Source: Oscillospiraceae bacterium
GTDB taxonomy: Bacteria; Bacillota; Clostridia; Oscillospirales; Oscillospiraceae
NCBI GenBank assembly: GCA_902765025.1
Contig: CACWYC010000001.1
Location: 71,586-135,585 of the forward strand
Direction of reading: 5' to 3'
DNA length: 64,000 nucleotides
Shown in pieces: positions 28,216 to 29,036 of the stretch. Made by a program: the position numbers and the translations under genes. The notes beneath the pieces were generated by a model that saw nothing but the letters and a program-made list of their open reading frames with translations, was not told where the DNA came from and did no database searches. The first letter of the stretch is position 1. Every line of letters begins with the position of its first letter.

Positions 28216-29036
28216 CTATTCCCCGCGCACGCGGGGGTGATCCCTACCGACCGTATCCAGGCAGCGCGGCTGCGAACTATTCCCCGCACACGCGGGGGTG
28301 ATCCCGAGGGCGTCAAGTGGACGCCGGAGCGCCAGTTCTATTCCCCGCGCACGCGGGGGTGATCCCTGCATGGGTTTTTGTTTGAGTTGCCCCAAAAGCT
28401 ATTCCCCGCACACGCGAGGGTGATCCCAACGATTTCAGCGATAACACGGTGTTCAACGACTATTCCCCGCGCATGCGGGGGTGATCCCCGCCGACCGCAT
28501 CCGGGCAGCACGGCTGCGAACTATTCCCCGCGCACGCGGGGGTAATCCCTGGCCCAGGACGGAGTTGCTATAATACTGCAATTATTCCCCGCGCACGCGG
28601 GGGTGATCCCATGTTGGACGCCCTCCGCAAAAAGACTGACGACTATTCCCCGCGCACGCGGGGGTGATCCCAAGCTCTTTTACGACTGCCTGCCATCCTG
28701 GGCCTATTCCCCGCGCACGCGGGGGTGATCCCACGTGTTCGCCCGCGGCGTTGATGTCCGCCAACTATTCCCCGCGCACGCGGGGATGATCCCGGCTACG
28801 GCCTGCTGTCCGACGCCGTCAGCTGCTATTCCCCGCGCACGCGGGGGTGATCCCGACACCACCACCGGCTTTTCCATAACGCCGCCCTATTCCCCGCGTA
28901 CGCGGGGGTGATCCCACCCACACAGGTCAGCATCAGAATGGGGCAGCCTATTCCCCGCGCACGCGGGGGTGATCCCGAGCACCACGGCGTCAATAAGGAG
29001 CACAGACGCTATTCCCCGCGCACGCGGGGTGATACC
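28216..29036 (+). CRISPR. Type I-E CRISPR array: 14 repeats (consensus CTATTCCCCGCGCACGCGGGGGTGATCCC, 29 nt), 13 spacers of 32 nt
   Basis: Repeats start at 28216, 28277, 28338, 28399, 28460, 28521, 28582, 28643, 28704, 28765, 28826, 28887, 28948 and 29009 (61-nt period); hairpin CCCCGC-GCAC-GCGGGG and an 8-nt handle as in E. coli I-E; degenerate last repeat indicates + orientation. Confidence 0.99.

Follow-up and report, generated by a model that had tools for sequence, protein, structure and literature searches.

Two near-identical spacers in a frozen type I-E CRISPR array of a gut Oscillospiraceae bacterium, and an intermediate allele in its sister lineage

In this study, we analysed a window of 64,000 nucleotides from an Oscillospiraceae genome (contig CACWYC010000001.1) and found that two spacers of its type I-E CRISPR array, spacer 1 (S1) and spacer 5 (S5), are versions of one protospacer. 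The array is frozen, and a sister lineage carries an intermediate allele of the pair, here named S*. With moderate confidence, we propose that the same AAC-flanked site was re-captured from a variant invader, and that decay within the array followed. The two spacers lie in the window as follows.

Positions 28245 to 28276, forward strand: spacer 1 (S1), the cas-proximal copy, TACCGACCGTATCCAGGCAGCGCGGCTGCGAA
Positions 28489 to 28520, forward strand: spacer 5 (S5), the internal copy, CGCCGACCGCATCCGGGCAGCACGGCTGCGAA

Aligned in register, S1 and S5 are identical at 27 of 32 positions. The five differences are found at positions 1 (T in S1, C in S5), 2 (A/G), 10 (T/C), 15 (A/G) and 22 (G/A), and all of them are transitions, as the first-pass annotation of this DNA had described. 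The remaining 155 in-register comparisons (78 spacer pairs, both orientations) gave a mean identity of 8.4/32 and a maximum of 17/32. An identity of 27/32 was reached in none of 200,000 shuffles, and its binomial probability is about 1e-9 after correction. Furthermore, the whole array is identical in two independent assemblies from other samples (L065 and L069), so that both spacers recur there. Thus, a chance resemblance or an assembly artefact, to which we give practically no credit, is refuted by this probability together with the independent assemblies, and the earlier claim that S1 and S5 stem from one protospacer holds. The two spacers are separated by three unrelated spacers, so they are not a tandem pair.

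S1 was unchanged in all four strains compared (L065, L066, L068 and L069). S5 was present in L065 and L069, and S5, S6 and S7 were missing from L066 and L068 as one block.

Positions 28460 to 28642, forward strand: block R5-S5-R6-S6-R7-S7, absent from L066 and L068

The array of these two strains runs S1-S2-S3-S4-S8 and onwards, with a consensus repeat after S4. Because this repeat stands in the place of the block, the gap is a repeat-to-repeat deletion. The cas genes of the two strains diverge by only 0.11% from those of the window, and S5 is thus dispensable in nature.

The array belongs to a locus whose features are listed below.

Positions 28216 to 29037, forward strand: type I-E CRISPR array, 14 repeats of 29 nt and 13 spacers of 32 nt
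Positions 20575 to 27983, forward strand: intact interference genes (open reading frames) in the order cas3-cse1-cse2-cas7-cas5-cas6e
Positions 20575 to 23325, forward strand: cas3
Positions 23312 to 24952, forward strand: cse1
Positions 24954 to 25571, forward strand: cse2
Positions 25568 to 26641, forward strand: cas7
Positions 26641 to 27342, forward strand: cas5
Positions 27339 to 27983, forward strand: cas6e
Positions 27976 to 28215, forward strand: cas1 remnant (about 240 nt, internally deleted), fused to the first base of repeat 1

The locus belongs to type I-E of the CRISPR-Cas systems. It has the 29-nt repeats with a GC hairpin, the 32-nt spacers, the 61-nt period and the cas gene order of this subtype; the cas1-cas2 genes and leader that type I-E places between the cas genes and the array are missing. 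The Pfam families, precomputed on contig L065 with identical cas genes, were Cas3_HD/Cas3_C, CRISPR_Cse1, CRISPR_Cse2, Cas_CT1975, Cas_Cas5d and CRISPR_assoc. The repeat consensus is CTATTCCCCGCGCACGCGGGGGTGATCCC (29 nt), which we take to align with the type I-E repeat of E. coli in the same register, and repeat 14 is degenerate. Among the 13 full repeats, seven carry one or two point changes against the consensus, which confirms the earlier statement that the repeats differ by 0-2 nt. All changes are G>A or C>T; the array thus holds eight repeat variants, every one a transition. In addition, an Rfam search of the region gave no match.

Between cas6e and repeat 1, neither cas2 nor a leader was present, and Cas1 (PF01867) had no match anywhere in the genome to which the window belongs (2.06 Mb, 98% complete). 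Since only a remnant of cas1 is left, cas2 and the leader are missing and the genome has no Cas1 match, spacer uptake is no longer possible and the array is frozen. A second array with the same repeat was found neither in this genome nor in five other species of the genus.

To compare relatives, we gathered about 40 metagenome contigs by the exact Cas6e protein and by the other members of its 90%-identity cluster. The strains of this cluster showed at least three distinct junctions between cas1 and the array.

Junction type A (window positions 27976 to 28215; window and most lineages): ...AACATACCGT followed directly by a repeat
Junction type B: ...GCCGCCGGC, then 23 nt, then a repeat
Junction type C: ...ATGGAGCTGATCCC followed by a spacer, with TGATC microhomology to the 3' end of the repeat

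The junction of the window was also found in L065-L069, L074-L081, L086, L088, L090 and L091. Besides the window, the junctions were read at L107 (2236-2504), L082 (4635-4810) and L088 (4635-4960). Types A and C each keep a segment of cas1 that the other lacks. Therefore, cas1, cas2 and the leader were lost at least two times independently, and the interference genes remained intact despite these losses in the strains of the Cas6e cluster. A relative with an 88% identical Cas6e (L071, 2675-2873) has a CRISPR repeat directly within cas1 at yet another position, and the 5' part of cas1 is normal in a relative at 82% (L073).

The arrays themselves have been reshuffled. We found five array types with 59 distinct spacers, of which only 0-2 are common to any pair of types, and most of them share the frozen junction (L074-L091 versus the window). 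The spacer order was consistent among the type A arrays and became cyclic when type B was added (46<34<38<46), which points to rearrangement or recombination between arrays. In addition, the spacer GTGTTTGACGGCCTTTCCACCGACAGCTACGC stands as a tandem pair in L074, L077, L080 and L091 and as a single copy in L075, L076 and L079.

The lineage with Cas6e variant P0123, here called the sister lineage, has the same junction between cas1 and repeat 1 as the window, and its array is otherwise different. The second spacer of this array is S*, TACCGACCGCATCCGGGCAGCGCGGCTGCGAA, which was found in at least nine contigs. S* has the bases of S1 at positions 1, 2 and 22 and the bases of S5 at positions 10 and 15. 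Thus, it differs from S1 only at position 10 (C versus T) and position 15 (G versus A), and the only bases that set it apart from S5 are TA instead of CG at the PAM-adjacent positions 1-2 and G instead of A at position 22. The junction left by the loss of the adaptation genes is common to the two lineages, and for this reason S1 and S* are one and the same spacer by descent. Taking S5 as the reference, we infer by parsimony that S* is ancestral to S1. Since S* keeps the bases of S5 at positions 10 and 15, T10 and A15 of S1 most likely arose inside the array, in the lineage of the window, and would not be phage polymorphisms. Two parallel back-changes, or a double crossover within 32 nt, are much less likely origins of S*.

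This result bears on several statements of the first-pass annotation, which had taken all five differences as natural variation of the target. S* places T10 and A15 inside the array, so that reading fails for these two differences. T10 is one of the silent third-position changes that had been described, and A15 is the change between Q and R.

The positions and flanks of the three spacers were also compared. In both lineages, S1 or S* occupies the first or second place counted from the cas end, and S5 is internal. When the order was rebuilt from all arrays with this junction, S* was again second (12 < S* < 19 < 21 < 46 < S12). The repeats around S1 (R1/R2) are the consensus and G12A, those around S5 (R5/R6) carry C15T and G24A, and those around S* carry C11T and G18A + A25C. 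No derived repeat variant is common to the flanks of S1, S* and S5, so there is no sign of a repeat that was duplicated together with its spacer.

How fast spacers change in such arrays could be estimated from the same contigs. Between lineages, the cas genes are pairwise 1.5-2.3% different (about 3-3.5% at third codon positions), and 68% of these differences are transitions. The third-position rate predicts about 1.1 changes per 32 nt, and two are seen between S1 and S* (P = 0.31 for at least two). Nine orthologous spacer pairs between lineages or array types showed 5 differences in 288 nt (1.7%), and single-base spacer differences also occurred among strains of one array type. These data indicate that the spacers of this frozen array family drift at a roughly neutral rate.

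The distance between S* and S5 was then set against these rates. The divergence is 15.6% between S1 and S5 and 9.4% between S* and S5. For the three S*/S5 differences to arise by drift, the probability is 0.02 at the rate of the orthologous spacers, 0.10 at the third-position rate and 0.16 at the rate of the repeats (8 changes in 377 nt per copy, or 4.2% pairwise). That positions 1 and 2 should both be among three random changes at G/C sites has P = 0.01. Furthermore, 5 of 64 spacer sites differ, compared with 8 of 377 repeat sites (Fisher P = 0.028). All three S*/S5 differences are transitions (P = 0.32), and this pattern is weak evidence for decay because 68% of the cas-gene differences are transitions as well. 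At the rate of the orthologous spacers, the older differences between S* and S5 look too many for drift, although only marginally; at the rate of the repeats, they are not unusual.

The repeats need some care as a measure of the neutral rate. The variants G12A and C15T in the hairpin loop recur at many unrelated positions in all lineages, which suggests that the hairpin-loop positions are mutational hot spots and not single inherited events. For this reason, we did not accept these positions as a neutral rate. In addition, patterns that tolerate decay (A>R, T>Y) were run for spacers 3 and 4 to gauge it, and returned one chance match only, in low-complexity GC-rich DNA.

Known targets of the array family gave the PAM.

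Positions 28306 to 28337, forward strand: spacer 2, directed against the large terminase gene of tailed phages from the gut

Spacer 2 is the only spacer of the window with a recognisable target. It matches MT835607.1 and 34 IMG/VR contigs at 29-30 of 32 positions, with AAC before every site. At 22 G/C sites, no G/C>A/T change separates it from the closest phage targets. Spacers of sister arrays match Microviridae (gokushovirus/microvirus) at 28-30 of 32 positions, namely in two VP1 capsid genes and at a third, unannotated site (L092, L093 and L094). All four independent targets known for the array family thus have AAC upstream, and C is the last base of the repeat. In E. coli, the last base of the repeat derives from the PAM. 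We conclude that this type I-E system of a gut Oscillospiraceae bacterium has 5'-AAC as its PAM.

The first-pass annotation had advised looking for a perfect match of each spacer next to a shared PAM. No match of S1, S5 or S* at 27/32 or better was found in INPHARED, PLSDB, IMG/VR, JGI metagenome contigs, GTDB species genomes, 400 genomes of the family or the organism's own genome. INPHARED was searched by blastn and IMG/VR with five patterns of growing looseness; two patterns each were used for the GTDB species genomes and the JGI contigs, and the patterns for the window and its own genome had 5 degenerate positions and were allowed up to 3 further mismatches. Looser patterns gave matches of 17-26/32 in unrelated contexts, which we take as at or near chance level. 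The best of them, at 26/32 (ADRIRAARAQKPV), lies in a gene for an S49 head-maturation protease on an IMG/VR contig (peptide ...FDLADRIRAARAQKPV...; Pfam PF01343 at E = 3e-32, phrog_53). Others fall in a tail protein gene (22/32) and in a soil contig, Streptomyces and Chthonomonadales DNA (24-25/32). In addition, two Flavonifractor phages match the first 18 nt at the 5' end of the spacer (18/18) in a gene whose product has 80 aa (...SNADRIRAMSD...). This site was rejected as the target, as the similarity ends completely at base 18 and the AAC there is shifted by one base against the register. The phages targeted by spacer 2 also contained nothing like S1 or S5: 21/32 was the best value in six complete IMG/VR genomes, 18 records gave no match, and the S49-like motif was absent from the same genomes and records.

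Three further accounts of the pair have to be weighed, among which chance or artefact has been dealt with above. One of the other two, which the first-pass annotation had favoured, is that an XRE/Cro-type repressor gene, carried by phages or integrative elements related to each other, was caught twice, with all five differences natural and partly synonymous. We consider it unlikely. The frame-2 peptides had been read correctly (ADRIRAARLR in S5), and the combined peptide (T/A)DRI(Q/R)AARLR presumably resembles the start of many XRE-family proteins (Pfam HTH_3, HTH_31). Furthermore, with an AAC PAM, position 1 becomes a synonymous change (ACT/ACC), as does position 22 (GCG/GCA). However, the frame argument carries no weight, because all six frames are open in both S1 and S5, and because three of five random differences share one codon phase in 63% of cases by simple arithmetic. 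Codon phase and open frames were therefore dropped as a sign of a coding target, for want of statistical power. Positions 10 and 15, moreover, appear to be in-array mutations, and none of the collections searched contained a target at 27/32 or better. A codon-degenerate version of the spacer (xDRIxAARLR with CGN/CTN codons) also matched no IMG/VR contig. A DRIRA(A) motif also occurs in the S49 protease, the tail protein and the 80-aa Flavonifractor phage protein, none of which is an HTH protein. Judged from these matches, a short peptide of this type points to no single protein family.

The other account needs a single capture only: the unit was copied by slippage or unequal recombination, or diverged alleles of different strains were joined by recombination, and all five differences arose within the array. 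We regard this, the main rival, as possible but doubtful. Two of the five differences do fall inside the array by parsimony, and the five spacer differences, like the eight repeat variants, are all transitions, although this is a weak point. A tandem spacer duplication is polymorphic in the family (the four contigs with the pair against the three with a single copy), orthologous spacers show point differences, and the spacer orders of the array types conflict in a cycle. Among the repeated spacers of CRISPRCasdb that were surveyed with SpacerPlacer, duplications dominate at 86%, compared with about 2% for re-acquisitions or independent insertions (PMC11472070), and recombination between arrays has been described (PMC4524480). 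At the repeat-derived rate, moreover, three differences are not rare (P = 0.16). Against a single capture, the divergence of S5 from S1 and from S* is above that of orthologous spacers (1.7%) and third positions (about 3.5%), and spacer sites differ more often than repeat sites (P = 0.028). The copies are not tandem, and their flanking repeats have no derived variant in common. The extra copy also lies at the cas-proximal entry end, which would be rare for a random internal duplication. Finally, seed positions 1-2, next to each other, carry the two oldest differences (P = 0.01), and spacer 2 has kept all of its 22 G/C sites free of G/C>A/T change.

Re-capture followed by decay accounts for the pair as follows. 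One 32-nt AAC-flanked protospacer of a mobile element would have been caught twice while Cas1-Cas2 was still present. S5 would be the older copy, and the later copy, in the form of S*, would have been inserted next to the cas/leader end. Its source may have been a variant of the element with TA instead of CG at the two PAM-proximal seed positions, and possibly with a difference at position 22 too. In type I-E systems, mismatches at the most PAM-proximal seed positions block interference. The TA variant would thus evade S5 and could prime a new uptake. The adaptation module and the leader would then have been deleted, and thereafter the array could only have lost units and gained point mutations. 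In the window lineage, C10>T and G15>A would have turned S* into the present S1, and A22 of S5 may be a similar decay. The two separate captures, and the escape and priming that we infer with them, are favoured at two points. Two of the three S*/S5 differences fall on the PAM-proximal seed positions 1-2, which favours two captures, and S1 and S* sit at the cas end in both lineages, where the newer copy would be, which favours the later capture of this copy. The earlier claim of two independent acquisitions with an escape variant is therefore kept in part: the seed differences and the cas-proximal newer copy fit it, whereas two of the five differences probably arose in the array.

Similar pairs are known from other systems. 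In the type I-C arrays of Legionella pneumophila, paired spacers lie on overlapping protospacers of the element LME-1 (Rao et al. 2016, PMC5071653). The newer spacer of each pair is perfect and the older one is mismatched in the seed or PAM, from which the authors infer escape and (primed) re-acquisition (PMC5071653). The window pair is like these in having two spacers for one site in one array, the newer of them nearer to the leader end, with PAM-proximal differences. However, LME-1 is a known target that the newer Legionella spacer matches perfectly, whereas the window pair had no target match in the collections searched. In addition, the window system is type I-E instead of type I-C, its Cas1-Cas2 has since been lost, and later decay probably makes up part of its spacer difference. 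The pair also resembles intra-array duplications, as a spacer occurs twice per array in a family with tandem duplication, block deletions and order conflicts. It is unlike the reported duplicates, which are near-identical, in that 5 of the 32 positions differ between S1 and S5, other spacers lie between them and their flanks have no repeat variant in common.

The same subtype has been studied in E. coli, where PAM-proximal seed mismatches abolish interference yet allow priming. Primed adaptation in this system was reportedly described by Datsenko and co-workers in 2012 and by Fineran and co-workers in 2014. The window system shares the subtype and the 5' trinucleotide PAM with E. coli. However, its PAM is AAC and not AAG, and its locus is now without Cas1, Cas2 and leader. 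Thus, S1 and S5 are a further and ordinary example of an already described pattern. What they add is that, by parsimony on the three alleles, part of the difference between the two spacers would be decay in an array without adaptation genes.

This addition has some practical meaning. Near-duplicate spacers are often taken as direct records of phage escape, and the present case indicates that such a reading can be partly wrong. An array without acquisition gathers point mutations in its spacers, and the comparison of sister strains can separate this decay from variation of the target. In annotation terms, the analysis yields an AAC PAM, targets in a terminase gene, in gokushovirus/microvirus capsid genes and at an unannotated Microviridae site, and a frozen, interference-only system; it does not change the knowledge of how CRISPR works. 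Tentatively, the pair may be read as a fossil 'spacer update', in which two PAM-proximal seed bases changed and the site was caught again, preserved in an array since without adaptation genes. Sister lineages with the unmutated allele might then offer a natural clock for the decay of CRISPR memories that are unused or no longer renewed, and the repeated loss of cas1-cas2-leader in one gut species, with Cascade and Cas3 kept, would hint at selection for interference-only CRISPR.

We also found that two INPHARED records from human faeces, MT835722.1 and MT838183.1, both labelled 'Bacteriophage sp.', contain type I-E-like repeat arrays resembling that of the window. The records may be bacterial DNA under a wrong label, or the arrays may be carried by phages.
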